27,454 bases of DNA from a virus. Lineage: Duplodnaviria > Heunggongvirae > Uroviricota > Caudoviricetes. How positions within the stretch are numbered: the first letter of the stretch is position 1; each line of letters begins with the position of its first letter. A program made the translations under genes and the position numbers. The stretch is from IMG/VR virus record IMGVR_UViG_2531839332_000012; one strand, given 5' to 3'. This document shows, in pieces, positions 1 through 16,978 of this stretch. The notes below the pieces were generated by a model. That model was not told the origin of the DNA and made no database searches. It saw only the letters and a list, made by a program, of their open reading frames with translations.

Positions 1-634
1 TGAACTTCGTTTCTTTCTGTTAATAGCCTTAGGGGTGATCATTGTTACCTCTTTCCAGGTCTGGCATATAGGTATGTATGACTTGCATGGAAGTTTTATT
101 CATTCGTTTTTTCTTGCCAGCTCCATGCTCACTGATAATGGTTTAGCTACGCAGGATTATGCAAGTTGGCCCACGCACACGATAGTGTTTTTGCTGTTGT
201 CAAGTTTCTTTGGGGGATGTATAGGTTCAACTTGTGGTGGAATTAAGTCACTTCGATTTCTTATACTTTTCAAACAAAGCAAACACGAGATAAATCAGCT
301 TTCTCATCCCAGAGCGTTGTTGAGTGTAAATGTAGGAGGGAAGATAGTTACAGATCGTGTAATGAGGTCTGTATGGAGTTTCTTTTTTCTTTATACTCTC
401 TTCACGGTGTTTTTTATACTGGTGTTAAATGGTATGGGATATGATTTTCTTACATCATTTGCAACAGTGGCTGCATGTATTAATAATATGGGATTAGGTT
501 TTGGGGCTACTGCATCGTCATTCGGAGTGCTTAATGACATTGCAAAATGTTTAATGTGCATAGCTATGATTCTTGGTCGCCTTGAAATTTATCCTGTTAT
601 TATATTGTTTTCAGGTTTTTTTTGGCGCTCCTAA
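1..634 (+). CDS. trkG: Trk-family K+ uptake membrane protein, C-terminal part (5' end lies outside the window)
   Basis: The open frame runs from the window start to a stop at 632-634 (ORF track 35..634). The product is hydrophobic and carries a TrkH/TrkG-type motif GGCIGSTCGGIKSLRF. trkG is known to sit inside the Rac prophage of E. coli K-12, matching the phage genes downstream. Confidence 0.75.
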   Translation, partial: ELRFFLLIALGVIIVTSFQVWHIGMYDLHGSFIHSFFLASSMLTDNGLATQDYASWPTHTIVFLLLSSFFGGCIGSTCGGIKSLRFLILFKQSKHEINQLSHPRALLSVNVGGKIVTDRVMRSVWSFFFLYTLFTVFFILVLNGMGYDFLTSFATVAACINNMGLGFGATASSFGVLNDIAKCLMCIAMILGRLEIYPVIILFSGFFWRS

Positions 635-720
635 TATATGGCTGATTTATAATTGTGAGTTTAATATTATGTTGACTCACTCATTGATCCAATACCTAAC
701 TTTACCAGCAACCCCTCCGT

Positions 721-752
721 CCCCAGTAGCACTGGCTGCTGGGGTGCGTTTT
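721..752 (+). terminator. Possible stem-loop or intrinsic terminator downstream of trkG
   Basis: A 10-bp stem (ccccagtagc / gctgctgggg, one G-U pair) with loop actg is followed by tgcgttttatt. The U-tract is separated from the stem by 4 nt, so this is a weak terminator candidate. Confidence 0.3.
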
Positions 753-771
753 ATTCATAAAGCAAGGCTGT

Positions 772-1566
772 ATGAGCGAGAAATTAAAGATAGTCTATCG
801 CCCATTACAAGAATTGTCACCGTATGCGCACAACGCCAGGACGCACAGCCCTGAGCAGGTGGCACAACTGGTAGAAAGTATTAAGCAATTCGGCTGGACT
901 AATCCGGTGCTGATTGACGAAAAGGGCGAAATTATTGCGGGTCACGGTCGTGTTATGGCGGCTGAAATGCTCAAAATGGATTCTGTTCCGGTCATTGTTC
1001 TGTCTGGCCTGACGGATGAGCAGAAAAAGGCGTACCGCCTGGCAGATAATCGCCTGCCGATGAATGCTGGCTGGGATGAAGATCTGTTGCGGATGGAGCT
1101 GTCGGACCTAATCAATGCTGATTTTGATGTCTCCCTGACAGGCTTCATCCCGACAGAAATTGATGAACTGTTGACGGATGTTTTGCCCGGTACAGGAAAT
1201 GAGGAGGAGCCGTATACGACGAAAATTGATACGCCTGTTTATGAGCCGTCGGGCGGTAAACCGGATATCAGTGAACTGTACGACGATACGAAAACTCAGG
1301 AGCTGATCAGCCGGATACGTTCGGCGTCCCTTGATCCTGATATTGAGAAATTCCTCCTGTGTGCGGCAGAACGTCACACAGTGTTTAATTTCAGCAGAAT
1401 TGCGGACTATTACGCTCATGCCCCCGCTGAAATTCAGTGCCTTTTCGAGGAGTCGGCGCTGGTGATCATTGATTATCAGCAGGCTATTGAAAATGGATTT
1501 GTCCGAATGACGCAGCGCATGGTGGAGATCATGCATGGCGGGGAGGAGGAGGAGGAATATGCGTGA
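772..1566 (+). CDS. ParB-like nuclease domain (ParB/Srx N-terminal domain) phage protein with an uncharacterised C-terminal domain
   Basis: 264-aa ORF. The N-terminus (YRPLQELSPYAHNARTHSPEQVAQLVESIKQFGWTNPVLIDEKGEIIAGHGRVMAA) fits the ParB N-terminal fold. The C-terminus ends in a poly-Glu tail (GGEEEEEYA). Its stop overlaps the next start (ATGCGTGA). Confidence 0.8.
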   Translation: MSEKLKIVYRPLQELSPYAHNARTHSPEQVAQLVESIKQFGWTNPVLIDEKGEIIAGHGRVMAAEMLKMDSVPVIVLSGLTDEQKKAYRLADNRLPMNAGWDEDLLRMELSDLINADFDVSLTGFIPTEIDELLTDVLPGTGNEEEPYTTKIDTPVYEPSGGKPDISELYDDTKTQELISRIRSASLDPDIEKFLLCAAERHTVFNFSRIADYYAHAPAEIQCLFEESALVIIDYQQAIENGFVRMTQRMVEIMHGGEEEEEYA

Positions 1567-2491
1567 TGATTTTTGCGCCTTTATTCTGACTCACGGGCGA
1601 CCGGACAAAGTTCTGACTTACCGGACGTTGCGTCGTGCTGGCTATACCGGGAAAATTTTTATCGTTGTTGATGATGAAGATAAGACACGGCATCAGTACA
1701 TGGCTGAATTTGGTGAACAGGTGCTGGTATTTTCCAAAGCCGATATTGCCAGTCGTTTTGACGAAGCCGATAATTTTGGTGATCGCCGCTCAATTTTTTA
1801 CGCCCGTAATGCCTGTTTCGACCTGGCAAAACTGGTCGGGTGTAAATACTTCATTCAGCTCGATGATGATTATCACGAGTTCCAGTTTCGGGTGGATCGC
1901 AACTATGACCAGGCCTATTTCCCGATAAGGAAACTGGATGCGATCCTTTCTGAAATGCTGGCGTATTACGAATCAATACCCGCGCTTTCCATCGCTATGT
2001 CGCAGGGCGGGGATTTTCTTGGTGACAATGGCGGCCATGCTTCGTGGGTGAAACGCAAGGCAATGAACAGCTTTATCTGTTCGGTTGATCGACCGTTCTC
2101 ATTCATGGGGCGCATTAACGAGGATGTGAATACGTACACGAATCTCGGTCGCTGTGGTGAATTGTTTATGACGATCGGTGCTGTCCAGTTAGGGCAGAAA
2201 CAGACGCAGAAAAACAGCGGCGGAATGACCGAGCTGTATCTGGATTCCGGAACCTACGTTAAAAGTTTTTACTCCGTCATGTATTCGCCGTCGTGCGTAA
2301 AAATCTCACTGATGGGTGCCAGCCATAAACGCATTCACCATCAGGTCACCTGGAACAACGCTGCAGTAAAAATCCTTCACGAAAAATACAGGAAGAAGAC
2401 ACCCTGCATATCAATGGGGGTGACAAATGATTCCGTATTCGAAAGTCGAGTCTCTGGCAGCGTGCCGGATGACTGCACAACAAATCGCTGA
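1559..2491 (+). CDS. Putative GT-A-fold (DXD motif) glycosyltransferase-like phage protein; function unknown
   Basis: ATG at 1559 is preceded by GGAGGAGGAGGAGGAA and overlaps the upstream stop. The product has an N-terminal strand CAFILTHGRPD, acidic IVVDDEDK, and a DXD-like FIQLDDDY motif typical of nucleotide-sugar transferases. The fold assignment is from motifs only. Confidence 0.6.
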   Translation: MRDDFCAFILTHGRPDKVLTYRTLRRAGYTGKIFIVVDDEDKTRHQYMAEFGEQVLVFSKADIASRFDEADNFGDRRSIFYARNACFDLAKLVGCKYFIQLDDDYHEFQFRVDRNYDQAYFPIRKLDAILSEMLAYYESIPALSIAMSQGGDFLGDNGGHASWVKRKAMNSFICSVDRPFSFMGRINEDVNTYTNLGRCGELFMTIGAVQLGQKQTQKNSGGMTELYLDSGTYVKSFYSVMYSPSCVKISLMGASHKRIHHQVTWNNAAVKILHEKYRKKTPCISMGVTNDSVFESRVSGSVPDDCTTNR

Positions 2492-2678
2492 CGTTCTGGA
2501 TGTTGATCTGAACCGACTGAAAGAAAATCGGGAAGCAATGACAGATTTTTATGCGGCCATCCGTAAGGGCAGAGCGAAAGGTGAAGCCGAGTTACGAGCG
2601 GCATTGTTTAAGCTTGCCAGAAAAGGGGATGCCTTTGCTCTGCGCGAACTACTCAGGGTGGATAAAAATCAGGACTAA
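2427..2678 (+). CDS. Small hypothetical protein (83 aa), possibly helix-turn-helix-like
   Basis: ORF with GGGGGTGA upstream of ATG 2427. An alternative start is ATG 2469. It overlaps the 3' end of the upstream gene and ends 3 nt before the terminase small subunit start. The product is Ala/Arg/Lys-rich and helical. Confidence 0.5.
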   Translation: MIPYSKVESLAACRMTAQQIADVLDVDLNRLKENREAMTDFYAAIRKGRAKGEAELRAALFKLARKGDAFALRELLRVDKNQD

Positions 2679-2681
2679 CTG

Positions 2682-3776
2682 ATGAGCAGACCGGACTGGG
2701 GGGCGTTGCAGCAGGAGTATATTGCTGAATACACCCGCTCCGGTATATCTCCGGTGGCATGGTGTGAAGCAAGGGGACTGAACTACGCAACAGCCCGTCG
2801 TTACATCAAAAAAACTCCGAAAAATGCGCAGAAAGAAATGCGCAAAACTGCGCAAAAAAGTGCGCGAAAAAAAACTGCGCAGACTGCGCAAAGGCAGAAC
2901 AGAAAATCTCAGAAAAAAAAGGCTGTATCCGATGCACTCCTGATTGAGGGGGACACGGAAGAAATTTCGTTCTGCCCCGATGAATTCGGTATTTCTGACC
3001 AGCAGGCAAAATTCGCCATGTTGGTTGCTCAGGGGAAAAAGCCGACAGAGGCATACCGACTGGCTGGTTATGAGGGGCAAGGTGCGACAGCTAACAGCAA
3101 CGCCAGCCGTATGCTTAGAAATGCCAGGGTTTATCGTGCTATCAGCTACTTCCGCAATCAGTACCAGAAACGCTATACCGCAGACCTGGATTTACTGGTG
3201 AGCCAGTTGATGGCCATTGTCCAGGCCGACCCCAATCAGTTGGCACAATTTCGCCGTGTTAACTGCCGTTATTGCTGGGGCGAGAATCATCTCTACCAGT
3301 GGCGTGATATTGCAGAATTCGATAAGGCTGCGGCACAGGCCTCCAGAGATGGTAAACCCGAGCCGGAATATGGAGGCCTCGGCTTTGTTGATAACGCCAT
3401 ACCCAATCCTGATTGCCCGAAGTGCTGCGGTGAGGGAACAGGACAGCTTTATATGGCTGATACCACACTGCTTGATGGGGATGCGCGGCAATTATATGCA
3501 GGGTCAAAGCTCGGAAAATACGGTGTTGAGATCCTGCTGGAGGATAAGGCTGCCGCCCGGCGTGAATTGTTGCGTTTGCTTTCTGCTGGCGGGGCATTAT
3601 GTGCAGATAAGCGGCTACAGGAACTGGAAATTGAACGGCGCAGAATAGAGAACCAGAAGCTGCGCAAAGAGATCGAAACGGTGGAGGATAATGAACATCC
3701 CCAGCCTGTGGCGATCAATATTAATGTGGTTGATGCCAGATTAAGGAGTGATGAAGATGATCTCTCCGACGCTTAA
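2682..3776 (+). CDS. Terminase small subunit (Terminase_2-like) with extra N-terminal basic repeat and C-terminal Cys-rich segment
   Basis: 364 aa. It has an N-terminal HTH-like segment (GISPVAWCEARGLNYATARRYI) and a second HTH motif AYRLAGYEGQGATANSNASRMLRNARVYRAI characteristic of small terminase subunits. It sits immediately upstream of and overlaps the large terminase gene. Confidence 0.8.
   Translation: MSRPDWGALQQEYIAEYTRSGISPVAWCEARGLNYATARRYIKKTPKNAQKEMRKTAQKSARKKTAQTAQRQNRKSQKKKAVSDALLIEGDTEEISFCPDEFGISDQQAKFAMLVAQGKKPTEAYRLAGYEGQGATANSNASRMLRNARVYRAISYFRNQYQKRYTADLDLLVSQLMAIVQADPNQLAQFRRVNCRYCWGENHLYQWRDIAEFDKAAAQASRDGKPEPEYGGLGFVDNAIPNPDCPKCCGEGTGQLYMADTTLLDGDARQLYAGSKLGKYGVEILLEDKAAARRELLRLLSAGGALCADKRLQELEIERRRIENQKLRKEIETVEDNEHPQPVAININVVDARLRSDEDDLSDA
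2821..2893 (+). repeat. Cluster of six TGCGC(A/G) direct repeats inside the 5' part of the small terminase gene (candidate pac / TerS-binding site)
   Basis: TGCGCA occurs at 2825, 2839, 2849, 2876 and 2885, and TGCGCG at 2861, spaced 9-15 nt apart. The same region encodes the basic repeat KNAQKEMRKTAQKSARKKTAQTAQRQ. Confidence 0.4.
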
Positions 3777-5058
3777 TGTGCCTCAGGCGCGATTTCTTTC
3801 AATGCCCCATAAATTTAAAGCCTATATTGCTGGTTTTGGCTCGGGCAAAACATGGGTTGGGTGTGGCGGCATATGCAAGGGGATTTGGGAGCATCCAGGT
3901 ATAAATCAGGGATATTTTGCGCCAACGTATCCCCAAATTCGCGATATTTTTTACCCTACAGTGGAAGAAGTTGCTGCTGACTGGGGATTGAACGTAAAAA
4001 TTAATGAGGGAAATAAAGAGGTTCACTTTTATTACGGACGCCAGTATCGGGGAACCACTATCTGCAGATCGATGGAGAAGCCACAAACGATCGTCGGTTT
4101 CAAAATTGGTAATGCGCTGGTGGATGAACTGGACATTTTGCCGAAGGAAAAAGCCAGAACGGCGTGGCGCAAGATAATTGCGCGTATGCGTTATAAGATT
4201 GATGGACTTCGCAACGGTATTGACGTTACAACCACGCCGGAAGGATTCAAATTTGTCTACGAGCAGTTTGTTAAAGCCGTGCGTGAAAAAACAGATCTGG
4301 CCTCACTGTATGGTCTGGTGCAGGCATCTACTTTCGATAATGAAAAGAACCTGCCAGCAGATTACATTCCTTCACTTCTTGAATCATACCCTCCAGAGCT
4401 GATTAAAGCCTATCTTCTAGGACGGTTTACTAACCTGACAAGTGGTACTGTTTACCATCAGTTTGACCGGAAACTGAATAATTGCGAAGAAGTGGAGCAG
4501 CCAGGGGAGCCGATTTATATTGGGATGGATTTTAACGTTGGAAAGATGGCGGGAATCGTCCATGTGCTGCGTTTGGGGCTTCCATGTGCGGTAACTGAAA
4601 TCATCAATGCCTACGATACGCCGGATATGATCCGCCTCATTAAAGAACGCTTCTGGCTGTATGACGGGCATGATTACCGGAAAGTGAGGGAGATTTATAT
4701 TTATCCAGATGCTTCCGGAGATTCCAGAAAATCAAGTAACGCAAGTACGACGGATATAGCCCAGCTTAAGCAGGCAGGTTTTAACGTTGTGGTGAACAGC
4801 TCGAACCCGCCAGTAAAAGATCGCGTTAACTCAATGAATGCAATGTTCTGCAATGCCAATGGTGAGCGTCGCTATAAAGTTAATGTGAAGCGTTGTCCGG
4901 TATATGCCGAATCTCTGGAGCAACAGGTCTGGGATGATAAGGGGGAGCCTGATAAAAAATCTGGCAATGATCACCCGAATGATGCCGGAGGTTATTTCAT
5001 CGTTAAGCAATTCCCTATTGTCAAACCGACCGGAAGAGTCACATCACTTCGGATTTAA
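3757..5058 (+). CDS. Terminase large subunit
   Basis: Walker A-like GFGSGKTW near the N-terminus; a ~435-aa protein directly after the small terminase. The start is ambiguous (GTG 3748, ATG 3751, ATG 3757). AAGGAG at 3743-3748 favours ATG 3757 by spacing. Confidence 0.85.
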   Translation: MISPTLNVPQARFLSMPHKFKAYIAGFGSGKTWVGCGGICKGIWEHPGINQGYFAPTYPQIRDIFYPTVEEVAADWGLNVKINEGNKEVHFYYGRQYRGTTICRSMEKPQTIVGFKIGNALVDELDILPKEKARTAWRKIIARMRYKIDGLRNGIDVTTTPEGFKFVYEQFVKAVREKTDLASLYGLVQASTFDNEKNLPADYIPSLLESYPPELIKAYLLGRFTNLTSGTVYHQFDRKLNNCEEVEQPGEPIYIGMDFNVGKMAGIVHVLRLGLPCAVTEIINAYDTPDMIRLIKERFWLYDGHDYRKVREIYIYPDASGDSRKSSNASTTDIAQLKQAGFNVVVNSSNPPVKDRVNSMNAMFCNANGERRYKVNVKRCPVYAESLEQQVWDDKGEPDKKSGNDHPNDAGGYFIVKQFPIVKPTGRVTSLRI

Positions 5059-5060
5059 TT

Positions 5061-6467
5061 ATGGCTGATATATCAACACCCAACCTCGACTATAACGATA
5101 TGCTGGAGGCGTGGGATATTAACGACGCATTGATGGGCGGTACGCTTGAAATGCGCAGGCAGGGGGAAAATTATCTCCCCAAATGGCCTAATGAAGATGA
5201 AGACGCTTATAAAAAACGCCTGTCTGTGGCTACGTTACTTCCTGTGTATGAAGAAAGCATCAAACAAAATATTGGGCGCATATTTGCAGAGCCGACAGTA
5301 TTGAGTGAGGAAACGCCGGAAAAAATCAGGGAATATGCAGAAAATATCGACATGGAGGGGAGCCGACTGGATGTGTGGGCGCAGCAATTTTTCAGTCTCG
5401 CATTTCAGTATGGTGTGGCACATGCGCTGGTGGACTATCCACGAACGGATATGAACGAGATTCGGACAAAAGCCGATGAAACCGCGGCCGGTGGTCGCCC
5501 GTACGTTACGATGCTGAATCCACGCCAGGTTATTGGATGGAAATCGAAAGTTGAAAAAGGGAAAGTTGTTCTCACTGATTTGCGTATAAAAGAGGTCATC
5601 ATTATTGATGGTGATGATTTCGGGCAGAAGAAGGTGGAGCAGATCCGCCATATTATGCCCCGTCGAGTAGAAATTTATCGACGCAGCGAAGGTACTAATG
5701 GCGAATCTGTCTGGATGCTTCATGAGTCATGGAATACCAGCCGTGATGATATTCCTCTGGTAACACTGTATACGAAGAAAACAGGGTTTATGCGTGGTAC
5801 ACCGCCATTGCTTAATCTTGGCTTGCTGAATATCAAGCACTGGCAAAGCCAGAGCGAGCAGGACAATATTCTTCATGTTGCCCGCGTTCCATTGCTGGTG
5901 GCCTACGGGCTGGACAGGAATGAAGAACTGACGGTTGGTGCATCCACGGCTACGATTTTTGAGGACAGAACAAAAAATGGCCTCGAATATGTTGAACATA
6001 GTGGCGCAGCGATAGAATCTGGCGAAACATCACTTGAGAAGCTGGAAAATCAGATGCGTCATGCCGGCGCTAAACTTCTGCGGGCTGAAAATACATCCAC
6101 CAAATCTGTTGATCAGACTAATGAAGAGCGGATGCAGGAACACTCGCCGCTTTATACAATGGCGAACTCCCTCGAAGATGCCCTCGATAATATTCTCCAG
6201 ATAATGGCGGAATGGAGCGGAGAGAGTTGCGGTGGCAATGTGGATGTGCGCACTGAACTGGATGTATCTGCCCAGGTGTTTGACTCATCCTCCGCGCTGG
6301 CTGTTCAGTCATTGCGTCAGGGCGGTGATATACGTCAGATTGATGCGGTTCGGGTGTTGCAGGCGTTGAAATTTATCGATCAGGATTCCCGTCCAGAGGA
6401 TGTGATCGATGAATTAAAAAATCAGAGTGTAATGTTGATGGAAATCAATGATGCAAACCGTGAATGA
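5061..6467 (+). CDS. Portal protein
   Basis: 468-aa ORF immediately after the large terminase (3-nt gap), at the conserved portal position, with an acidic C-terminus. Confidence 0.8.
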   Translation: MADISTPNLDYNDMLEAWDINDALMGGTLEMRRQGENYLPKWPNEDEDAYKKRLSVATLLPVYEESIKQNIGRIFAEPTVLSEETPEKIREYAENIDMEGSRLDVWAQQFFSLAFQYGVAHALVDYPRTDMNEIRTKADETAAGGRPYVTMLNPRQVIGWKSKVEKGKVVLTDLRIKEVIIIDGDDFGQKKVEQIRHIMPRRVEIYRRSEGTNGESVWMLHESWNTSRDDIPLVTLYTKKTGFMRGTPPLLNLGLLNIKHWQSQSEQDNILHVARVPLLVAYGLDRNEELTVGASTATIFEDRTKNGLEYVEHSGAAIESGETSLEKLENQMRHAGAKLLRAENTSTKSVDQTNEERMQEHSPLYTMANSLEDALDNILQIMAEWSGESCGGNVDVRTELDVSAQVFDSSSALAVQSLRQGGDIRQIDAVRVLQALKFIDQDSRPEDVIDELKNQSVMLMEINDANRE

Positions 6468-7563
6468 ACGGCTGCGTGATGAATCAATTGCTCATGCAGT
6501 CTGGATATCCCGCTATAGCACTGGTGTGGCTGCCAGAATGGGGAAAATACTGAATGACAGCGATGCGGAGCTTACAGCTCGCCTGCTGGTAGCACTGGAC
6601 AGCCTCGATCCTGGTAGTTTTACCGTTACGCGCCTGGAGTCACTTCTGGCGAGTGTCAGAGAGGTTAACCGCGCTGCTATTAACAGCATGTTTACCAGTC
6701 TCTCCGGAGAGCTGAACGAGCTGGCAATTTATGAGGCTGGTTATCAGTTAAGTCTGTTTGATTCTCTGCTACCTGATTTTGTTGCTGATGTTCACCCTCT
6801 GGTTGGTATATCTTCTGATGCACTTTACGCCGCTGCAATGGCGCGACCATTCCAGGGACGACTGCTCAGTGAGTGGGCCTTGGATCTTGAGGCGGATCGG
6901 CTCAGACGCATAACAAATACGGTGCGTCAGGGTTTTTTGCTGGGGGATACCAATGAGCAGATCGCAAGAAAAATTCGGGGACATGTCAGCAAGGGATTTC
7001 AGGATGGTGCATTGCAGATGAGCCGGGCTAATGCGGCCAGCATTGCAAAAACAGCGGTTGGACATCTTGCTGCTACTGCCCGTGAGAGTTTTGCCAGCGC
7101 GAATAATGATTTGATTAAGGGTAAGCAATGGTTATCAACGCTTGATAATCGTACTACGCCACAATGTCGAATCAGGGATCGCCTCAAATATACGCTGGAT
7201 AATAAACCTGTAGGTCACAGTGTGCCTTATTTGCATGGGCCGGGAAAAATTCATTTCTGCTGCCGCTCAACGGAAACGTTCATTCTGAAATCAGCGAAGG
7301 AACTGGGTATTGATGTTCGTGATATTTCCCCGGCTGAGCGGGCCAGCATGGATGGCGTGGTGGCCGGAGATACAACCTACAGGGAATGGTTTTTGCGTCA
7401 GCCTTACACCAGACAAAAACAGATTGTGGGGGAAACCCGGGCAAAGCTGATTCGGGATGGCGGTATGTCGCCAGATGAATTTTACACCGATAAAGGCGAA
7501 TGGCTGACGCTGAAGCAACTCCGTGAGCGTGATGCACAGGTATTCAGAAAAGCAGGGATTTAA
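6448..7563 (+). CDS. Head morphogenesis / minor head protein (SPP1 gp7 / Mu F-like)
   Basis: 371-aa ORF overlapping the portal stop. Position and size fit minor head protein families. The start is ATG 6448 or 6451. Confidence 0.7.
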   Translation: MMQTVNERLRDESIAHAVWISRYSTGVAARMGKILNDSDAELTARLLVALDSLDPGSFTVTRLESLLASVREVNRAAINSMFTSLSGELNELAIYEAGYQLSLFDSLLPDFVADVHPLVGISSDALYAAAMARPFQGRLLSEWALDLEADRLRRITNTVRQGFLLGDTNEQIARKIRGHVSKGFQDGALQMSRANAASIAKTAVGHLAATARESFASANNDLIKGKQWLSTLDNRTTPQCRIRDRLKYTLDNKPVGHSVPYLHGPGKIHFCCRSTETFILKSAKELGIDVRDISPAERASMDGVVAGDTTYREWFLRQPYTRQKQIVGETRAKLIRDGGMSPDEFYTDKGEWLTLKQLRERDAQVFRKAGI

Positions 7564-7582
7564 ATAAATCATTTATTACAAC

Positions 7583-7610
7583 AGGCTACCTTCGGGTGGC
7601 CTTTTTTATT
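7583..7610 (+). terminator. Intrinsic terminator-like hairpin after the minor head protein gene
   Basis: aggctacc-ttcg-ggtggcct forms an 8-bp stem (one G-U pair) followed by TTTTTTATT, 20 nt after the stop at 7561-7563. Confidence 0.5.
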
Positions 7611-7667
7611 GCTGCGATCCGGATGGTGAGCAGCGTAACTGTCGGAAGACTTAAACCAGGTACTAAT

Positions 7668-8432
7668 ATGAAACTGAAAACGGTCGAGATTAACGGAAAA
7701 CAATACGCAGAAATTGATACTGCTGGCCTGCCAGTTTATGTGCACGACGATGGTAAAGAAATCGGCTTCGATGCACCGCTGGCGATAAAAAAAATTACAG
7801 AGCTTAATGGCGAGGCAAAAAATCATCGCCTGGCTAAAGAAGCTGCAGAGGAAAAACTGGCTAAGTTTGCCGCTATCGAAGACCCGAAGAAGGCGATCGA
7901 GGCACTGGAAATGCTGTTAAAAATCGACCAGAAAAAGCTGATCGATGCGGGACAGGTTGACCAGGTTAAGGCAGAAATTACGAAAAATTTTCAGCAGCAA
8001 TTAGATGAAGAAAAGCAACGCTCTCAGATGCTGGAGACGCAGCTTTACGATTCTATGATTGGCGGTAGTTTTGCGGGTTCAAAATATATTGCCGATAAAA
8101 TTGCGATCCCGGCAGATTTATTACAAGCCCGCTTCGGGCAGGCATTCAAAGTGGAAGAAGGGAAGATCGTTGCTTATGACGCTTCCGGCAACAAAATTTA
8201 TTCCCGCGCGAAGCCTGGCGAACTGGCGCAGTTTGATGAGGCGCTGGAGTTCCTTGTCGAAAATTACCCTCAGAAAGACTACATCCTGAAAGCCAGTGGC
8301 AACAATGGCGGCGGCTCCCGTCCGACACAGCATGATATTGGTCAGAAAACGATGAAACGCTCTGCTTTTGATGCACTGGATGTTGCAGGTAAGCAAAACG
8401 CATTGAAAGACGGTATCACAATCGTTGATTAA
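7668..8432 (+). CDS. Putative head scaffolding protein
   Basis: The ORF track frame 7596..8432 overlaps the terminator hairpin at its 5' end, so ATG 7668 (MKLKTVEINGKQY) is the more likely start. The product is helical and charged, and lies between the minor head and major capsid genes. Confidence 0.55.
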   Translation: MKLKTVEINGKQYAEIDTAGLPVYVHDDGKEIGFDAPLAIKKITELNGEAKNHRLAKEAAEEKLAKFAAIEDPKKAIEALEMLLKIDQKKLIDAGQVDQVKAEITKNFQQQLDEEKQRSQMLETQLYDSMIGGSFAGSKYIADKIAIPADLLQARFGQAFKVEEGKIVAYDASGNKIYSRAKPGELAQFDEALEFLVENYPQKDYILKASGNNGGGSRPTQHDIGQKTMKRSAFDALDVAGKQNALKDGITIVD

Positions 8433-8530
8433 CACATTTGTCAGCTTCCGGATGGGAGCTGGTGTCAGGGCTGGATAGCTCATTACTCCATCTATTCACA
8501 ATTACGCAAATTTTTAAGGAATATTTAATT

Positions 8531-9670
8531 ATGGCTGGAAATACCCTGACCGGGTTGATCCCGACTATTTATACCGCCCTGGATGTTGTATCCCGTGAGC
8601 AGGTAGGTTTTATCCCTGCGGTAGCAAAAAACGTAAAAGCTGACGCCGCAGCAAAAGATCAGACGGTAACCGCGCCAGTTGCGCCTGAGGCGAAAACCGA
8701 AGATATCGTACCGGGGCCGTCAGCTCCGAATACCGGTGATCAAAATATTGGCACTGTTGATGTAAAAATTACTAAATCCAAAATGGCACCGGTTAAATGG
8801 AATGGTGAAGAACAACTGGCTCTTGGCCCTTCAGGGACTTACAACACCATTCTGGCTGATCAGTTCAAGCAGGCTTTTCGCGCCCTTGCAAACGAGGTTG
8901 AGGCTGATCTTGGTGCGTTGTATTTCGGTGCTTCCCGCGCCGTGGGAACCGCAGGGACAACGCCGTTTGGTGTTAAAGATGATCTTTCTGATGCTGCTCT
9001 GGCTCGTCAGGTTCTGGAGGATAACGGCGCACCGACAACCGATCTGCAGATGGTGCTTGGCTCCACTGCCATTGCTAATTTGCGCGGAAAACAGTCTGTA
9101 TTGTTTAAAGTGAATGAATCCGGCACTGAACAGCTACTGCGTGAGGGCGTGTTGGGGCGTCTGGAGGGATTCAATATTCACAGTTCGGCAGGTGTGAAAC
9201 GAGCGCCAAAGGTTGCTGCAACTGGTTATCTCGTGAATGGAGAGAAAAAAGAAGGCGATGTTCTTATTTCCATTGATACTGGTTCGGGGAGTATTTCTGC
9301 AGGTCAGATTGTTACGTTCGCTGGTGATCCGAATCAGTATGTTGTGGCAGCAGCGACCAGCAATCTGATTACTCTTGCAGCGCCCGGACTGCGTCAGGAT
9401 CTGGCCGATGATACTGCCATCACAGTTGTTGGGGCCTTTACGGCAAATATGGCGTTTGATCGCAACGCGTTTCTGCTGGCATCCCGTACTCCGGCAATGC
9501 CGGAAGGTGGCGATAATGCTGATGATGTAATGAATGTTACGGACCCGATTTCAGGGATTACGTTCCAGATTGCACTGTATCGTCAGTATCGCCAGGTGCG
9601 CTATGAAGTTGGACTGGCATGGGGTGTTTCATCAGTGAAGCCGGCACATGGTTGTCTGATTCTTGGTTAA
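8531..9670 (+). CDS. Major capsid protein
   Basis: ATG 8531 is preceded by AAGGA at 8516-8520. The ~379-aa product sits after the scaffold gene and is followed by a strong terminator hairpin, as is common for coat genes. Confidence 0.7.
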   Translation: MAGNTLTGLIPTIYTALDVVSREQVGFIPAVAKNVKADAAAKDQTVTAPVAPEAKTEDIVPGPSAPNTGDQNIGTVDVKITKSKMAPVKWNGEEQLALGPSGTYNTILADQFKQAFRALANEVEADLGALYFGASRAVGTAGTTPFGVKDDLSDAALARQVLEDNGAPTTDLQMVLGSTAIANLRGKQSVLFKVNESGTEQLLREGVLGRLEGFNIHSSAGVKRAPKVAATGYLVNGEKKEGDVLISIDTGSGSISAGQIVTFAGDPNQYVVAAATSNLITLAAPGLRQDLADDTAITVVGAFTANMAFDRNAFLLASRTPAMPEGGDNADDVMNVTDPISGITFQIALYRQYRQVRYEVGLAWGVSSVKPAHGCLILG

Positions 9671-9680
9671 ACATTCAAAC

Positions 9681-9700
9681 GGGGCTTCGGCCCCATTTTT
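9681..9700 (+). terminator. Intrinsic terminator after the major capsid gene
   Basis: ggggc-ttcg-gcccc hairpin followed by ATTTTTA. Confidence 0.5.
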
Positions 9701-9712
9701 AATGGGGGGCAT

Positions 9713-9889
9713 ATGGCCGGATTAACTAAAGAGCAAAGAGCACAGCGTGAAGCCGCACAAAAAACGCAAATTGAGTTAGTGGTTATGGTGACCGATTATC
9801 AGATGTTTCCCGGCGCACCAACTATCGCTAATGTTCATCCTGATGAAGTTGACAACTGGAAGGCTATGGGCTGGAAAACTCAGGAGTAA
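9713..9889 (+). CDS. Small hypothetical protein (58 aa), absent from the ORF track
   Basis: ATG 9713 is preceded by GGGGGG at 9704-9709. I translated it by hand with no internal stop: MAGLTKEQRAQREAAQKTQIELVVMVTDYQMFPGAPTIANVHPDEVDNWKAMGWKTQE. It fills the gap between capsid and connector genes, and its 3' end supplies the SD (CAGGAG) for the next gene. Confidence 0.45.
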   Translation: MAGLTKEQRAQREAAQKTQIELVVMVTDYQMFPGAPTIANVHPDEVDNWKAMGWKTQE

Positions 9890-9892
9890 CAC

Positions 9893-10288
9893 ATGATCAC
9901 TTACGTGACCTGTGATGACGTTGATAATGCGTTTGGGAACGCCTGGACGAGTGAGAACGCTAAAAATAAAGCTGTTTTAATGGCTAATGCCTGGCTTAAT
10001 GGCTTCAACCTGAAAATTAACCCATCCCGTATTCCGGAAGAGGTAAAACTTGCGGGAGCATATGCAGCCAGAATTGCCTCATTCGGTAAGTTGTTTCAGC
10101 AGAAAAATGATTCTGGCGTTGTTATCAGTAAAGCCGTGTCGGCTGACGGGGTCAGTGTATCGAAATCATTTTCTGAGTTGCCAGCAAACAGCACTGCATT
10201 GCTTGAACCCGATTTACAGCTTGCGATAGCACTGCTGAAACCGTACGGACTTAGTCGCTCACAAGTCAGGGTTGTGAGGGGGGGATAA
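9893..10288 (+). CDS. Head-tail connector / head completion protein (putative)
   Basis: 131-aa ORF with SD CAGGAG; first of four small, translationally coupled neck genes. Confidence 0.5.
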   Translation: MITYVTCDDVDNAFGNAWTSENAKNKAVLMANAWLNGFNLKINPSRIPEEVKLAGAYAARIASFGKLFQQKNDSGVVISKAVSADGVSVSKSFSELPANSTALLEPDLQLAIALLKPYGLSRSQVRVVRGG

Positions 10289-10671
10289 TGGGGCTTCGTG
10301 AAGAGATTCAGTCAGAGGTTGCCGCTGCTTTTGATGAGGATTTAGCGGACGCCGTGAGTGATTTTTCTGGTTCTTACGTTACGCACCGGCACTGGGATCC
10401 TGTGACGGAAACTGGCGGCGAATCCACCGCAATCTATACCGGGCGAGGCGTGTTGACACGTTATAAGCTGGGCAGAATTGATGGGATTAATATTTTGCAT
10501 GGTGACCTTAAATTAACCGCTCTGGTATGCGAGGTTACGGATAAACCAGCTGTCGACCATATTATTGAGATTTATGATCCTGTATCAAGGCAGTTACAAC
10601 GATACGAGGTAATTACAGCAAGTGTAGATCCTTCCGCATCAGTTTACTCTATCCAGTTAAGGAGAGCGTAA
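10288..10671 (+). CDS. Head-tail adaptor / head closure protein (putative)
   Basis: 127-aa ORF. Its start overlaps the upstream stop (TAATG) and is preceded by a GAGGGGGGG SD. Confidence 0.5.
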   Translation: MGLREEIQSEVAAAFDEDLADAVSDFSGSYVTHRHWDPVTETGGESTAIYTGRGVLTRYKLGRIDGINILHGDLKLTALVCEVTDKPAVDHIIEIYDPVSRQLQRYEVITASVDPSASVYSIQLRRA

Positions 10672-11052
10672 ATGGCAAAGGCATGGGATATAGAACCGTC
10701 AATATTTGCCGGGATGATTGAGGAAGATGTAGGGCTGAAGATTCGCTACATCGCTATTCAGATTCTTACTGCTATTGATATTGCTGCTCCGGTTGATACC
10801 GGACGTTTCAGAAATAACAACCTGGTGTCGTTACAGCATCCCGATTTTGGTATATCTGATAACGTGGATCCGAACGGTACGATTGCTGTTCAGCGTGGGA
10901 TCGGGGTTATTTCGAAAGCTGCAAATTACGGAGTTATTTATATCCAGAATAACCTTCCTTATGCAGAGGCTCTTGAAAACGGTCATTCACAACAAGCGCC
11001 AACTGGCGTGTATGCCAACGCTTTTCATGGTGTTTTACAGGCTTACAAATGA
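10672..11052 (+). CDS. HK97 gp10-like neck / tail-attachment protein (putative)
   Basis: 126-aa ORF with SD AAGGAGAG. It contains the motif PVDTGRFRNN, which resembles the DTGxLR signature of the HK97 gp10 family. Confidence 0.5.
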   Translation: MAKAWDIEPSIFAGMIEEDVGLKIRYIAIQILTAIDIAAPVDTGRFRNNNLVSLQHPDFGISDNVDPNGTIAVQRGIGVISKAANYGVIYIQNNLPYAEALENGHSQQAPTGVYANAFHGVLQAYK

Positions 11053-11441
11053 CGTTTACTGAAATCAGAAATACGGTTATTTCCAGAATGACGGCACAGA
11101 CGATTATTGATGGAAAAGACGTATTGTATCCGAACGCGCCAACGTTCGATCCTTCCGGTAAGTTAATCTGGGCGCGGTTAAGTAATATTCCCGGGCAGGC
11201 TGGAGTTAATGAAATTGGCGCGGGGCCGATTGTTTATCGCACGGGGATAATCATTATTCAGTTATTTGTCCCCGCAGGTTCTGGTTCAAAACTCATTACT
11301 GAGACAGCCGATAAATTGCGGGAACTGTTTGAGTTTCAGGATGACGATCGTCTCAGTTACCAGGCTGTTTCCTCAATAGCCGTTGGCGAAAAGAATGGCT
11401 GGTTCCAGCTTAATCTTCAAATTCCATATCGCGCGCTCTAG
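11049..11441 (+). CDS. Tail completion / tail terminator protein (putative)
   Basis: 130-aa ORF overlapping the upstream stop (ATGA), immediately upstream of the major tail gene. Confidence 0.5.
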   Translation: MTFTEIRNTVISRMTAQTIIDGKDVLYPNAPTFDPSGKLIWARLSNIPGQAGVNEIGAGPIVYRTGIIIIQLFVPAGSGSKLITETADKLRELFEFQDDDRLSYQAVSSIAVGEKNGWFQLNLQIPYRAL

Positions 11442-11467
11442 CGCAATTAATGACATAGGAGGCTCCT

Positions 11468-12430
11468 GTGAGTTCAGGTGCAAAGGTTATCTCGGCATTT
11501 ATCCGGGAGACGGTTGCAGGCACTACGCCAGCAAGTGGTGACTGGAGTTTATTAAAACGCACAAGCTGGGGAGTAAAACCCACCCAGAATAAAGGCGAAA
11601 ATAATGAGATTGGTGGCTCCCGGATGGCTCAGGGGGCGACGCCTGGCACTGTGGATGTCGGCGGTGATGTTGGTACCAAATTTCGCTGGGGTCAACATGA
11701 TGATTTTCTTGCATCCTGTTTCGGCGCGGAATGGTCAGGCGATTCTCTGACAATGGGGAATGAGCGAATAACATTTTCTCTGGCGACCTATGCGTCCGAT
11801 GTCGGAATTGCCTCTGTCGTCAGAGGAGCGCAGGTTGGCTCATGGAAAATGCAGATCCCTAACGACGGCGATATTACAGCGACCGTAACCTTTGCCGGAC
11901 TGGACTGGGAATCAAAGGCCGATGATACGAATTTTATCAAAGGCGAACCTGTGGATAGTGCAGGAAAGCTACGTTATTCGTTTAAGGAGGTTTCAGCAGT
12001 AAGCCTGAATGGTGTTGCCGGAGGTAACGGTTTTTGTATCGACAGTTTTGATATTCAGTTCGATAACAAACTCCAGACACAGCGTTGTATCGGGACTGGC
12101 TCGCCTTATGCAGGAGCAAATATTCCGACTACTTTTACACCGTCCGGTACGGTGACGCTTTCATGGTCTAAAGCCGCGTGGGAAATCTGGAGTAAAACAC
12201 TGACTGGAGAAACAGTTCCGTTCAGCTTCACGCTTTCGAATGGAGAGGGGGCATACACTTTCAGTTTCCCGAAGGTTCAGGTGTCAGGTGAATGGCCTGA
12301 TGGGGGTAATAGCGACATTATCCAGGTTCAATTGAGCATTACCGCAGCAGATGAAGCACCTACGATAACCAGAAAAAAAAATTCCCCGGCTGCCGTGATC
12401 GCAAAAGCCAGTGCTGAGGCGATTAGTTGA
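11468..12430 (+). CDS. Major tail (tube) protein
   Basis: GTG start preceded by AGGAGG at 11457-11462. The 320-aa product is Gly/Ser/Thr-rich and lies directly upstream of the G/GT chaperone pair and tape measure. Confidence 0.7.
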   Translation: MSSGAKVISAFIRETVAGTTPASGDWSLLKRTSWGVKPTQNKGENNEIGGSRMAQGATPGTVDVGGDVGTKFRWGQHDDFLASCFGAEWSGDSLTMGNERITFSLATYASDVGIASVVRGAQVGSWKMQIPNDGDITATVTFAGLDWESKADDTNFIKGEPVDSAGKLRYSFKEVSAVSLNGVAGGNGFCIDSFDIQFDNKLQTQRCIGTGSPYAGANIPTTFTPSGTVTLSWSKAAWEIWSKTLTGETVPFSFTLSNGEGAYTFSFPKVQVSGEWPDGGNSDIIQVQLSITAADEAPTITRKKNSPAAVIAKASAEAIS

Positions 12431-12478
12431 TTTTCCGTTATTCCTCCTGTGGTACTGCCCTACAGGGGGACGCATTGA

Positions 12479-12940
12479 ATGAGGTTATGGATGTTTATTC
12501 TTAATCAGAAAATTATCATTGGTGTAGAACGCTGGTTTACGCCAATGAAGGACTTAAAACCTGTAGACGGGTTAAAACTGTTGGTGGCAAGCAGCGATAA
12601 CGATCAGTATCGCTCCCGTAATGCATTAATCCGTCGCCACATTGAGAAAATGGATGCCAGTTTGCACGTCGGAACGAAGGAGTTTGATATTTCAAAGGTT
12701 TCCGAGGTGGATTCTGTTGATGATTTACTCATTGATAATGCCGCTCGTTATCTGCTGAAAGACTGGAAAGGGGTTGGTGAACTGGTTAATGGTGTTGAGG
12801 TTGCACTGGAATATACGGCAGAACGAGGGATCGCGCTGCTTAAGCAGAATCCAGAGTTGTACTGGCAGATCCTTGCAGAAGCAGCCAGCATCGCCCAGGG
12901 TAAAGAGCAGCAGAAGCAGGATACGATAAAAAAGCCATAG
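12479..12940 (+). CDS. Tail assembly chaperone (lambda gpG analogue)
   Basis: ATG 12479 is preceded by GGGGGA. The ~153-aa acidic product ends just after an A AAA AAG slippery heptamer, and the -1 frame stays open to 13248. It sits between the major tail and tape measure genes. Confidence 0.75.
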   Translation: MRLWMFILNQKIIIGVERWFTPMKDLKPVDGLKLLVASSDNDQYRSRNALIRRHIEKMDASLHVGTKEFDISKVSEVDSVDDLLIDNAARYLLKDWKGVGELVNGVEVALEYTAERGIALLKQNPELYWQILAEAASIAQGKEQQKQDTIKKP

Positions 12941-13248
12941 CTGCCCAGCGGTGGTTATCGGAGTTCGGGGGAGAAAGGGGGGAAAAGGCAAGATGGAAGC
13001 GAGAAAAACTCAGGTTGCCACCGATACCGGAACCAGAAATAGACCCGGTGCTTAAGGAGTTGTTGTACGCCTATTCGGTAATATCCCGTGCCCGACGTTA
13101 TGCTGGAATGGCTGGGGTGCCTTTGCCTTTATCTCTGACAGAGATAAATGAATATTTAACCACTCATCCGGTATTGATTGAGCGCGATGAATTTGAAGCA
13201 GTGATCTTTGCACTGGATGACCAGTATTTTCAGGAGCAGTGTGTGTAG
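12479..13248 (+). CDS. Tail assembly chaperone frameshift product (lambda gpGT analogue), made by -1 ribosomal slippage at 12928-12934
   Basis: The -1 frame is free of stops from the heptamer at 12928-12934 through 13246-13248. The predicted junction is ...QDTIKK then KAIAAQRWLSEFGGERGEKARWKREKLRLPPIPEPEIDPV... Coordinates are the outer limits of the two joined segments (12479..12934 and 12934..13248). Confidence 0.6.
12928..12934 (+). promoter_or_regulatory. Slippery heptamer A AAA AAG for programmed -1 frameshifting
   Basis: The zero-frame codons AAA (12929-12931) and AAG (12932-12934) are preceded by A at 12928. This is the same heptamer class as E. coli dnaX. The G-frame stop follows 1 codon later. 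Confidence 0.6.
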
Positions 13249-13369
13249 TTGTTAATTACGTACACTCTGTTACAGAGATGTGATGGTGTCTTTAATTAAA
13301 TCGATGATGCTCCTGGAGAAAAGCATTGCGTGGCCTCGTAATCGCTATATCTACTATTATGTCGCCTGA

Positions 13370-13396
13370 AACCCACTTCGCGGTGGGTTTTTTGTT
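13370..13396 (+). terminator. Intrinsic terminator-like hairpin just upstream of the tape measure gene
   Basis: aacccac-ttcgcg-gtgggtt forms a 7-bp stem followed by TTTTTGTTG. It ends ~18 nt before the tape measure ATG at 13414, whose SD GGAG lies at 13401-13404. Confidence 0.45.
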
Positions 13397-13413
13397 GTCA
13401 GGAGTTTTAATAA

Positions 13414-16400: not shown

Positions 16401-16647
16401 GGAAGCCATTATGCCATTAACACGAACTTCCGATGGTTCTCTTGGTGTCAGAGCTATTAATAGTAAAAGTGGTAATGGAGGCGGAGATATTACCTATGCC
16501 CCTGTATACCAAATCACTATTCAAAATGACGGCCAGAATGGAGAGATTGGCCCTCAGGCAATAAAAGCACTTATGGGGATGGTTGATCAGCGGGTGCAGG
16601 GCAATCTGTTAAATATGCGACGTGATGGGGGAATGTTAAGTGGCTAA
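13414..16647 (+). CDS. Tail tape measure protein
   Basis: 1077-aa protein with a long coiled-coil Ala/Gln/Glu-rich N-terminal half and hydrophobic mid-region ([35 protein letters not shown]), at the canonical position after G/GT. Confidence 0.9.
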
Positions 16648-16978
16648 TACGGAAGAATTTCACTGGTTACCAGAGGATGGAATGAAAACAGAAAATAAAC
16701 CATCGATAAAAACTGTAAGATTTGGCGATGGTTATGAGCAACGAAGTCCAAATGGACTTAATCATTCTCTGCGCGTTTTCACCTGTGATTTCAAAGTTGA
16801 GGCGAATGAACGTGATTCATTTGAAAAATTTTTAGCCCGGCATGAAGGCTATAAATCTTTTTTTTGGCGCCCGCCGGGTATTAACAGAAAAATCAGAGTG
16901 GTGTGTCGAACGTGGTCAGCGACAGAACATATCACCTATACCGATTTTTCGTGTCAGTTTGACGAAGTGGTGATCTGA
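16640..16978 (+). CDS. M: Minor tail protein M (lambda gpM homologue)
   Basis: Contains [16 protein letters not shown] and [17 protein letters not shown], matching the lambda gpM family. GTG 16640 overlaps the tape measure stop; ATG 16682 is an alternative start. Confidence 0.8.

Follow-up and report, generated by a model that had tools for sequence, protein, structure and literature searches.

The window analysed here, the whole 27,454-nucleotide (nt) stretch of virus record IMGVR_UViG_2531839332_000012, is occupied downstream of trkG by the late region of a Rac-type lambdoid prophage, and our subject is a pair of overlapping genes that lies between trkG and the terminase genes. The first of them, ynaK (gene A), joins an N-terminal module with the ParB/Srx fold to a C-terminal domain (the C-domain) that is acidic, helical and about 105 amino acids (aa) long; the second (gene B) is predicted, from its sequence and its modelled structure, to be an intact nucleotide-sugar transferase of the GT-A, DXD type that belongs to the TAGT family. 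Our main finding is that the C-domain is the constant partner of this subfamily of TAGT enzymes, with the ParB domain as an optional addition. The features of the pair are as follows.

772..1566, + strand: gene A (ynaK), whole, 264 aa
772..1176, + strand: gene A, N-terminal module with the ParB/Srx nucleoside triphosphate (NTP)-binding fold, aa 1-135
1177..1209, + strand: gene A, acidic linker, aa 136-146, predicted to be flexible (predicted local distance difference test score, pLDDT, <50 at 137-146; variable in the alignment)
1210..1521, + strand: gene A, C-terminal partner domain, aa 147-250, the conserved partner of the glycosyltransferase
1542..1558, + strand: GGAGG/(GAG)n tract, read from the sequence; Glu run of gene A and Shine-Dalgarno-like element for gene B
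1559..2491, + strand: gene B, TAGT-family GT-A glycosyltransferase, 310 aa (Pfam PF20691, PHROG 842, alignment and fold matches)

Amino acids 8-222 of gene B match the Pfam family TAGT (TET-associated glycosyltransferase, PF20691) with 121.6 bits against a cut-off of 27.5 (5.5e-35), and the protein matches PHROG 842 at 1.4e-103. An earlier note on this DNA had proposed a nucleotide-sugar transferase fold from the motifs CAFILTHGRPD, IVVDDEDK and FIQLDDDY; all three are present, and the proposal agrees both with the TAGT match and with Foldseek searches of the AlphaFold model, which returned GT-A enzymes only (LH3, SpsA, SunS/ThuS, glycogenin and LARGE1), at modest E values of ~4e-4 to ~1e-3. 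The model has a pLDDT >85 over most of residues 1-150, the Rossmann-like half of the protein, and is poor past residue 215. PDB sequences searched with the glycosyltransferase profile gave no match. In an alignment of 17 homologues at 60-82% identity, the invariant residues include R14 (positions 1598-1600), D38, D41, D68-E69, D102-D104 (1862-1870), E188-D189 (2120-2125) and many others. R14, D102-D104 and E188-D189 correspond to the R...DDD...EDY/F motif of JGT (the base-J glucosyltransferase of trypanosomes) and of the phage GT-A enzymes that glycosylate 5-hydroxymethylcytosine (5hmC), as defined for JGT and the DNA-acting phage enzymes (bioRxiv 10.1101/2023.12.21.572611), with the difference that the ED of the third motif is followed in gene B by V and not by Y or F. 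The last ~25 aa of gene B form an extension specific to the E. coli lineage, the proteins of other genera ending at ~282-290 aa.

The earlier note recognised neither protein as a member of a characterised family, but both fall within named families and TAGT is a curated Pfam family with characterised members. Profile and structure searches, which the note had set beforehand as the means of refuting its proposal, left gene B a GT-A enzyme and the pair one without an experimentally known function.

Gene A matches PHROG 620 over its full length (1.5e-90), and its aa 23-90 match Pfam ParB_N (PF02195) with 28.9 bits against a cut-off of 26.3, consistent with the ParB/Srx-type domain that had been recognised there. 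Its first 140 aa also match families of ParB-methyltransferase fusions, PHROG 498 at 1.2e-50 (profile positions 31-171 of 633) and PADLOC MTase_II at 2.5e-38 (profile positions 13-151 of 436), but both matches stop at the N-terminal part and no Pfam match indicates a methyltransferase domain in gene A, as the note had also observed. The nearest folds to the N-terminal domain are the NTP-binding folds of sulfiredoxin, PadC, SerK and KorB. A residue-level alignment to Spo0J/ParB structures, by which the box residues were assigned, aligns the phosphate-binding residues R23 (box I), R60 (AGHGR, the GxxR of box II) and N93 (box III) with those of ParB, and places N21 and H58 at the catalytic Gln and Glu of ParB (Q-P-R becoming N-A-R, and AGERR becoming AGHGR). 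The GxxR arginine is gone in the corresponding proteins of the Nocardia phage NTR1 and of Porphyromonas phages. No nuclease motif was identified in gene A, and the 'nuclease-fold' label that it had been given is probably the wrong emphasis, the closest folds being NTP-binding ones; 'nuclease domain' is an old label for what is now regarded as the NTP-binding ParB/Srx fold. The traits of a canonical partition ParB were likewise not found in gene A, the TIGR00180 score of 38.5 lying below the cut-off of 58.45 and neither a helix-turn-helix (HTH) nor a ParB C-terminal domain being detected.

The C-terminal ~120 aa of gene A have no Pfam match even at E<=10, and for the ~105-aa C-domain within them neither a Pfam family nor a structural match was found. 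The protein ends HGGEEEEEYA, so the earlier description of an unrelated C-terminal domain with a poly-Glu tail is borne out. Conserved motifs of the domain are YT.K...P.YEP, AA.RH.VFNF, IADYYAHA and E.SALVIID. Y148, Y157, E158 and P159, which hardly vary, fall in a segment that is modelled with low confidence, and conserved polar residues are spread beyond this linear motif over the entire folded domain.

The gene B ATG at 1559, a start backed by the N-termini of homologues and by PGAP, overlaps the gene A TGA (1564-1566) in an 8-nt overlap, ATGCGTGA. The overlap had been noticed correctly, with coordinates that need correcting: the start is 1559 and not 1558, and the protein has 310 aa and not 311. 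GGAGG repeats at 1542-1555 encode the Glu run and stand 3-12 nt ahead of the gene B ATG, in keeping with the proposal that the poly-Glu sequence serves as the ribosome-binding site of gene B. The copy number of the (GAG)n tract (1542-1557) varies in E. coli, with 5 Glu here and 4 in P0121 and P0123. The overlap is kept far beyond E. coli, being typically 8-14 nt in 152 partner-seeded loci and present as a stop/start overlap in most loci, and this pattern supports the earlier proposal that the two genes are translationally coupled.

The C-domain and its glycosyltransferase

When the co-occurrence of the pair was examined across prophages and viruses, 232 of 240 loci proved to encode the C-domain directly upstream of a TAGT gene. 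The loci came from three sets. In the first, 80 IMG/VR loci collected with the glycosyltransferase profile (73-100% identity), every locus carried a gene A with both domains just upstream of the glycosyltransferase (80/80). The other two were seeded with the C-domain profile, and the glycosyltransferase followed immediately downstream in 78 of 80 viral loci and in 74 of 80 loci from species-representative bacterial genomes. The eight exceptions comprise five contig ends, one truncated prophage end, one locus without a callable partner open reading frame (ORF) and one with only 729 nt of downstream sequence. In a Syntrophorhabdus metagenome-assembled genome (L180, 2557-3360) the C-domain is fused to a DUF3102-like N-terminal domain, there is no glycosyltransferase and the host glgC comes next; this locus looks like a truncated prophage end. 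Thus the C-domain, which had been treated as incidental, is the part of gene A that is invariably paired with the glycosyltransferase, and it is the ParB domain that is optional.

The C-domain family comprises 1394 clusters at 50% identity. A protein search with the domain returned mainly stand-alone proteins of 129-142 aa, and three unrelated metagenomic contexts each showed a stand-alone C-domain gene followed directly by a PF20691 gene. Among the best 150 C-domain matches the domain is usually at the C-terminus, and about three quarters of them bear an N-terminal extension of ~130-190 aa with the ParB signature. No natural fusion of partner and glycosyltransferase occurs among the best 120 and best 150 matches; longer E. 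coli 'fusions' were considered and look like deletion or assembly products.

A tblastn search of deposited phages recovered the enzyme at 27-47% identity, in each case behind an overlapping ParB-like gene and usually with the terminase genes next. The carriers are Lactobacillus gasseri phage phi jlb1, L. delbrueckii phage c5 and its relatives, Nocardia phage NTR1, Porphyromonas phage005b and the archaeal halovirus HHTV-2, and the subfamily is highly conserved, the E. coli prophage enzyme being 40-47% identical to the Lactobacillus, Nocardia and haloarchaeal virus enzymes. Among the aligned partners from these phages, the best-shared part is the C-domain. In NTR1 (L085, 1-3408) the large terminase gene directly follows the pair and a small terminase is not annotated. 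Vibrio jumbo phages have, as the upstream gene, the C-domain alone (139 aa) amid primase, exonuclease and helicase genes; in those of ~191 kb (phage pv27, L086, 5459-6888) the pair lies away from the terminase. The hosts of prophages with the pair include Proteobacteria, Bacteroidota, Firmicutes, Actinobacteria, Verrucomicrobia, Planctomycetota, Desulfobacterota, Chlorobi, Cloacimonadota and candidate phyla radiation (CPR) lineages, among others. Of all members of the block the glycosyltransferase is the best conserved, its identity being 73-83% where that of the small terminase is 36-48%.

What stands at the N-terminus of the partner can be exchanged: it is a ParB/Srx fold, a short peptide of the form Qxx[LM]F or, in rare cases, a domain of another kind. 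Partners that lack the ParB module usually start M-K-Q-[IV]-N-[LM]-F-G (L093-L172; P0136-P0270). A Qxx[LMIF]F sequence stands near the N-terminus in 63 of the 67 stand-alone partners of viral loci and in 54 of the 78 stand-alone proteins from the protein search, as compared with 1.1% of composition-matched shuffles; at the level of 50% clusters, the [LM]F-type peptide is found in 12 of 18 and its Gln in 7 of 18. The E. coli gene A has ParB_N in place of the Qxx[LM]F peptide. Bacterial proteins bind the beta sliding clamp through the motif QL[SD]LF, and the resemblance of the peptide to this motif is a lead and not a finding. Partner and enzyme also differ in charge, with an isoelectric point of 4.5 for gene A and a median of 5.4 for the stand-alone partners against a median of 8.5 for the glycosyltransferase family.

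Prophage setting and neighbouring genes

Around the pair, the window holds the following features.

1..634, + strand: 3' part of trkG (ORF to the stop at 632-634; trkG annotation in the identical locus L081)
721..744, + strand: terminator-like hairpin and T-run (consensus scan; 10-pair stem with 7 GC pairs)
2427..2678, + strand: small ORF, 83 aa (ORF83), matching PHROG 309 at positions 145-218; resembles a piece of the small terminase
2682..3776, + strand: small terminase subunit (Pfam Terminase_2, PHROG 51)
3748..5058, + strand: large terminase subunit (Pfam Terminase_6N/6C)

Portal, head and tail genes come after the terminase genes. The gene trkG is a potassium-transporter cargo gene of the Rac prophage, and it had been correctly named as the neighbour of the pair, its end falling at 634. 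The hairpin at 721-744 lies 3' of trkG and 27 nt ahead of gene A, so late transcription would have to cross it. The pair had been placed directly upstream of the terminase genes; it is indeed upstream of them, but not directly, because the conserved ORF83 intervenes. PGAP starts this ORF at 2469 (2469-2678, 69 aa), and it is annotated as hypothetical in L081. It overlaps gene B by 65 nt (2427-2491), within the E. coli-specific extension of the glycosyltransferase, and in other genera the glycosyltransferase stop falls ~20 nt short of it. ORF83 is present in 76 of the 80 loci seeded with the glycosyltransferase (59-100% identity; 4 of these partly truncated) and absent from the other 4, in all of which the glycosyltransferase is cut at about residue 231-239. 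The small terminase, full or partly truncated, is syntenic in 73 of the same 80 loci, the other 7 being loci that end earlier or have a truncated glycosyltransferase. It co-varies with the A-B block, and the large terminase is swapped for unrelated ones in many loci that retain gene A, gene B, ORF83 and the small terminase.

By megablast, the region 600-2700 was found in 1610 of 5426 complete E. coli genomes and was complete in 867. The arrangement of A and B is not a matter of chance, as it recurs in 80 related viral loci and in these 867 genomes. RefSeq/PGAP names the products 'ynaK: ParB/Srx family N-terminal domain-containing protein', 'GREB1-related protein' (or hypothetical) and 'terminase small subunit', the GREB1-related name of gene B thus predating this analysis. 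Ten deposited E. coli and Salmonella phage records hold the block at 98.5-98.7% identity under the labels 'chromosome partitioning protein' and 'hypothetical'. K-12 strains retain only about the first 250 nt of ynaK; K-12 ydaY was considered as a remnant of gene B and ruled out, ydaY being a tail-region gene; the K-12 piece of ynaK is fused to the sequence beyond it.

The locus identical to ours, L081 of strain YC21-F17, lies in a whole prophage, in which racC, kilR and sieB are followed by lysis genes and trkG and then by the tail genes. Positions 1-17000 of the window are gap-free and nearly identical to this prophage. From 17 to 21 kb the window differs from L081 by ~126 small indels, with frameshifting ones making up 130 of the 133 in all, and only fragments are left of the minor-tail genes L, K, I and J (L at 16978-17325, 115 aa; the C-terminus of J at 20986-22377). 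These indels may reflect real decay, or else errors of assembly or polishing, the region being one that is repeated among lambdoid prophages.

Over 80 diverse loci, the frequent neighbours of the pair are DUF6291, terminases, DnaB, NinG, ERF/RecT, RusA, PD-(D/E)XK nucleases and DnaA-C-like proteins, together with several distinct clusters of C5 and N6/N4 DNA methyltransferases; extra glycosyltransferases and genes for an acetyltransferase, a GDP-mannose dehydratase, an epimerase and a sugar C-methyltransferase occur occasionally. The surroundings of the pair are thus a neighbourhood of DNA metabolism and DNA modification, in which no neighbour gene is a constant third partner. Enzymes that could make an acceptor do not appear among the common neighbour clusters of the 80 loci, in the 25 of 77 families listed, and rare singletons may be missed. 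Among the loci L090 (8001-12039), L088 (6868-9228) and L091 (8001-10020), some continue after the pair with a GT-B-type glycosyltransferase and a hexapeptide acyltransferase, a hint of a longer glycan, and others have a C5 or N6/N4 DNA methyltransferase adjoining it.

What the pair may do

We take genes A and B to encode a two-subunit phage glycosyltransferase whose substrate is most likely DNA and which is tethered by its partner and works before packaging, and our confidence in this reading is about evenly divided. It follows the DNA-modification or anti-restriction role offered in the earlier note, which emerges as the best-supported interpretation. The N-domain of gene A is placed by its profile matches in the same subfamily as the DNA-methyltransferase fusions, which supports a DNA context. 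In the mechanism that we propose, the C-domain and the poorly ordered YT.K...P.YEP segment would bind the basic glycosyltransferase, at a ratio of ~1:1 that translational coupling would help to provide, and the C-domain may complete that portion of the enzyme which AlphaFold fails to fold by itself. The N-terminal module would deliver or activate the enzyme on double-stranded DNA, in its ParB version like the ParB-type activator of phage thymine dioxygenases or like DpdB for DpdA, and in its peptide version by attaching to the sliding clamp of the host, in the way that T4 alpha-glucosyltransferase (alpha-GT) attaches to gp45. Made from a late transcript ahead of the terminase, the enzyme would transfer a sugar from a nucleoside diphosphate-sugar to phage DNA before or during packaging, and the glycosylated DNA would be protected from host nucleases after injection.

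The acceptor is the difficulty. No hydroxymethyl-pyrimidine pathway accompanies the pair, and in this mechanism the acceptor could not be 5hmC or 5-hydroxymethyluracil made by the phage. It is possible, if doubtful, that the pair is a self-sufficient system which needs no prior hydroxymethylation and attaches a sugar to canonical DNA or to some acceptor that has yet to be described in DNA, and in which a new accessory domain couples the enzyme to a ParB-type NTP-gated module or to the host clamp. To our knowledge, the phage DNA glycosylations that are understood all begin from 5-hydroxymethyl-pyrimidines or 5-hydroxycytosine.

Several observations weigh against a DNA-acting, partner-tethered enzyme. 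As far as we know, the characterised DNA enzymes of the TAGT family all need a hydroxymethyl group or a sugar already on one, and no TET/JBP dioxygenase, thymidylate-synthase-like hydroxymethylase or DNA methyltransferase is annotated in the whole Rac-type prophage or in the complete 38-kb phi jlb1 genome; alpha-GT and beta-glucosyltransferase (beta-GT) are absent from the annotation of both as well. No DNA-binding domain can be recognised in the strongly acidic partner, and, as regards a DNA-binding surface on the enzyme, the C-terminal third of gene B has a pLDDT <50. The clamp-binding reading of the Qxx[LM]F peptide is one of resemblance, and at least a third of the most diverse stand-alone partners lack the peptide. 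Finally, human GREB1, a member of the TAGT family, is an O-GlcNAc transferase that glycosylates a protein (PMC7968844).

Protein glycosylation is indeed a serious rival, because the DNA-acting relatives need a hydroxymethyl group or a sugar, GREB1 modifies a protein and the partner has no evident DNA-binding surface; on balance we nevertheless think it unlikely. Gene B would here modify its own partner, on the invariant Tyr or Thr of YT.K...P.YEP in the manner of glycogenin, or another phage or host protein, as GREB1 places O-GlcNAc on ER-alpha, and the sugar-modified protein would be the functional product. Glycogenin and peptide S-glycosyltransferases are among the fold matches of gene B, although these are generic GT-A matches at E ~1e-3. 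Residues Y148, Y157, E158 and P159, in their low-confidence segment, would suit a linear motif shown to the enzyme, but the conserved polar residues extend over the whole folded C-domain. Strict co-inheritance fits an enzyme and its substrate, and the pathway to a DNA acceptor is absent from the Rac-type prophage and from phi jlb1; against this, DNA is indicated both by the swappable N-terminal modules and by neighbourhoods of replication, packaging and methylase genes. The neighbourhoods and the ParB/methyltransferase-type N-domain argue in the same way against a counter-defence role, in which host RNA or a nucleotide-derived immune signal would be glycosylated with the partner as specificity or regulatory subunit. 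Such a role would accommodate an acceptor that must exist in both Bacteria and Archaea, the self-contained nature of the pair and the many kinds of acceptor that GT-A enzymes use. However, nothing here points to RNA or small molecules and neither gene B nor the C-domain has a PADLOC match, and we regard counter-defence as improbable.

The position of the pair shortly before the terminase genes in E. coli, phi jlb1, c5, NTR1 and the Porphyromonas phages, with no annotated small terminase between it and the large terminase in NTR1, and the co-variation of the block with the small and not the large terminase, could instead suggest a packaging accessory, as the earlier note had allowed: the ParB-like protein would be a nuclease or a pac/cos-site factor acting with the terminase in the manner of HNH proteins, and the glycosyltransferase an unrelated passenger. 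The glycosyltransferase, however, is the most conserved gene of the block and therefore not a passenger, while the ParB module is dispensable, in Vibrio phages and many metagenomic ones the ParB-less pair is surrounded by genes for replication, and the ParB-like protein has no nuclease motif and its closest folds are NTP-binding. We consider this role highly improbable. Scarcely credible, to our minds, are a lysogenic-conversion enzyme that acts on a cell-envelope glycan and a plasmid-type partition protein. Prophages often carry O-antigen-modifying glycosyltransferases (cited as background in PMC12373910), but genes A and B stand in the late operon and not in the position of cargo expressed during lysogeny, they are present in lytic jumbo phages, and the same pair is found in viruses of Archaea and of Gram-positive and Gram-negative bacteria, hosts whose envelopes are unrelated. 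The partition reading would agree with the label given in the phage records, yet it conflicts with the low TIGR00180 score, the lack of the HTH and ParB C-terminal domains in gene A and the lack of a ParA gene in the Rac-type prophage.

Relation to known systems and significance

If the pair is a DNA glycosyltransferase of the kind we prefer, several known systems resemble it in part. The TAGT family includes JGT, the phage GT-A enzymes that act on 5hmC in DNA, and the beta-glucosyl-HMC-alpha-glucosyltransferase of T2 and T6, which adds a second glucose to glucosyl-hmC (PMC13390438, PMC13216743). Gene B shares with these enzymes its family membership at 121.6 bits, the GT-A fold, the R...DDD...ED motifs, a phage origin and a DNA-metabolism neighbourhood; it differs from them in that the Rac-type prophage and phi jlb1 have no annotated TET/JBP, thymidylate-synthase-like enzyme, alpha-GT or beta-GT. 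The TAGT enzymes of T4-like Aeromonas phages are only 23-26% identical to gene B, and the C-domain is absent from those phages. A 2026 paper counted 'solitary TAGTs', of no known role, in 288 of 753 phage genomes (PMC13216743), and 65% of glycosyltransferase contigs have been flagged as unexplained because no base-modifying enzyme lies nearby (bioRxiv 10.1101/2023.12.21.572611).

The closest parallel for gene A is the requirement of phage thymine dioxygenases for a cognate ParB-like protein, specifically on double-stranded DNA (PMC13229309). ParB176, the partner of 5mYOX176, consists of an NTP-binding domain, short helices, an unstructured linker of ~50 aa and a C-terminal domain, without an HTH, and the phage ParBs that activate dioxygenases carry Q52 to N and E93 to D or H substitutions (PMC13229309). 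The layout of gene A is alike, as compared by description, and the Q to N and E to H substitutions are found in it too. Both systems have an HTH-less ParB-fold protein beside a post-replicative DNA-modifying enzyme, a candidate one in our case, which it adjoins and with which it is co-inherited (adjacency in 232 of 240 loci), and 5mYOX176/ParB176 is likewise often near terminase genes and glycosyltransferases; the client here, however, is a glycosyltransferase and not a dioxygenase. The C-domain has no detectable relation to the dimerisation domain of ParB and also exists without the ParB module.

In the DpdA/DpdB system, insertion of preQ0 into DNA by DpdA depends on DpdB, an ATPase with the ParB fold (PMC10164549), so that here too a ParB-fold NTPase with a helical C-terminal domain aids an enzyme that alters the bases of double-stranded DNA. 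The chemistry differs, being transglycosylation, DpdB has a DGQQR motif and an SspE-like C-terminal domain, and the setting is a bacterial restriction-modification system and not a phage late operon. The ParB-methyltransferase fusions (PHROG 498, PADLOC MTase_II) are close homologues of the N-terminal 140 aa of gene A, but in place of their methyltransferase domain gene A has the partner C-domain and a separate, coupled glycosyltransferase. A ParB-terminase locus for phage DNA-modifying enzymes, in which ParBs direct modification during packaging, was proposed by the Aravind group, as cited in PMC4738411 and PMC8256090; our pair has the same position ahead of the terminase genes, and the logic, to modify phage DNA around packaging, is the same (PMC4738411). 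For the partners with the Qxx[LM]F peptide the precedent is T4 alpha-GT, which co-purifies with the gp45 sliding clamp (PMC13216743). The role that we propose for these partners is the same clamp tethering of a phage DNA glycosyltransferase, with the differences that the T4 enzyme is a GT-B protein which binds the clamp of its own phage directly, and that here the motif is on a separate partner whose interaction with the clamp is a prediction.

The components and the general idea were thus known before: the TAGT family was already curated, discussion of ParB-terminase loci goes back to 2013, and DNA-modifying enzymes that depend on a ParB were demonstrated in 2025-2026. In the literature searched we found no prior description of the obligate, unnamed partner domain or its ParB-less form, nor of the alternative N-terminal modules, the systematic absence of acceptor pathways or the wide spread of the pair over Bacteria and Archaea; Iyer et al. 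2013 (NAR) lay outside that search and may hold part of this. The contribution of this analysis is the definition of the partner domain of the class, the analogy with the ParB-dependent thymine dioxygenases and an easy experimental system in E. coli. The module is absent from K-12, which therefore offers a clean recipient, and present in Rac-type prophages of ordinary E. coli. Should the pair indeed glycosylate DNA without prior hydroxymethylation, a DNA modification of an undescribed kind would be present in roughly one sequenced E. coli strain in six, as well as in viruses that infect haloarchaea and over a dozen bacterial phyla. The outcome bears on how phages evade restriction and CRISPR, on the behaviour of temperate-phage DNA in sequencing and cloning, and on the wider roles of the ParB fold.

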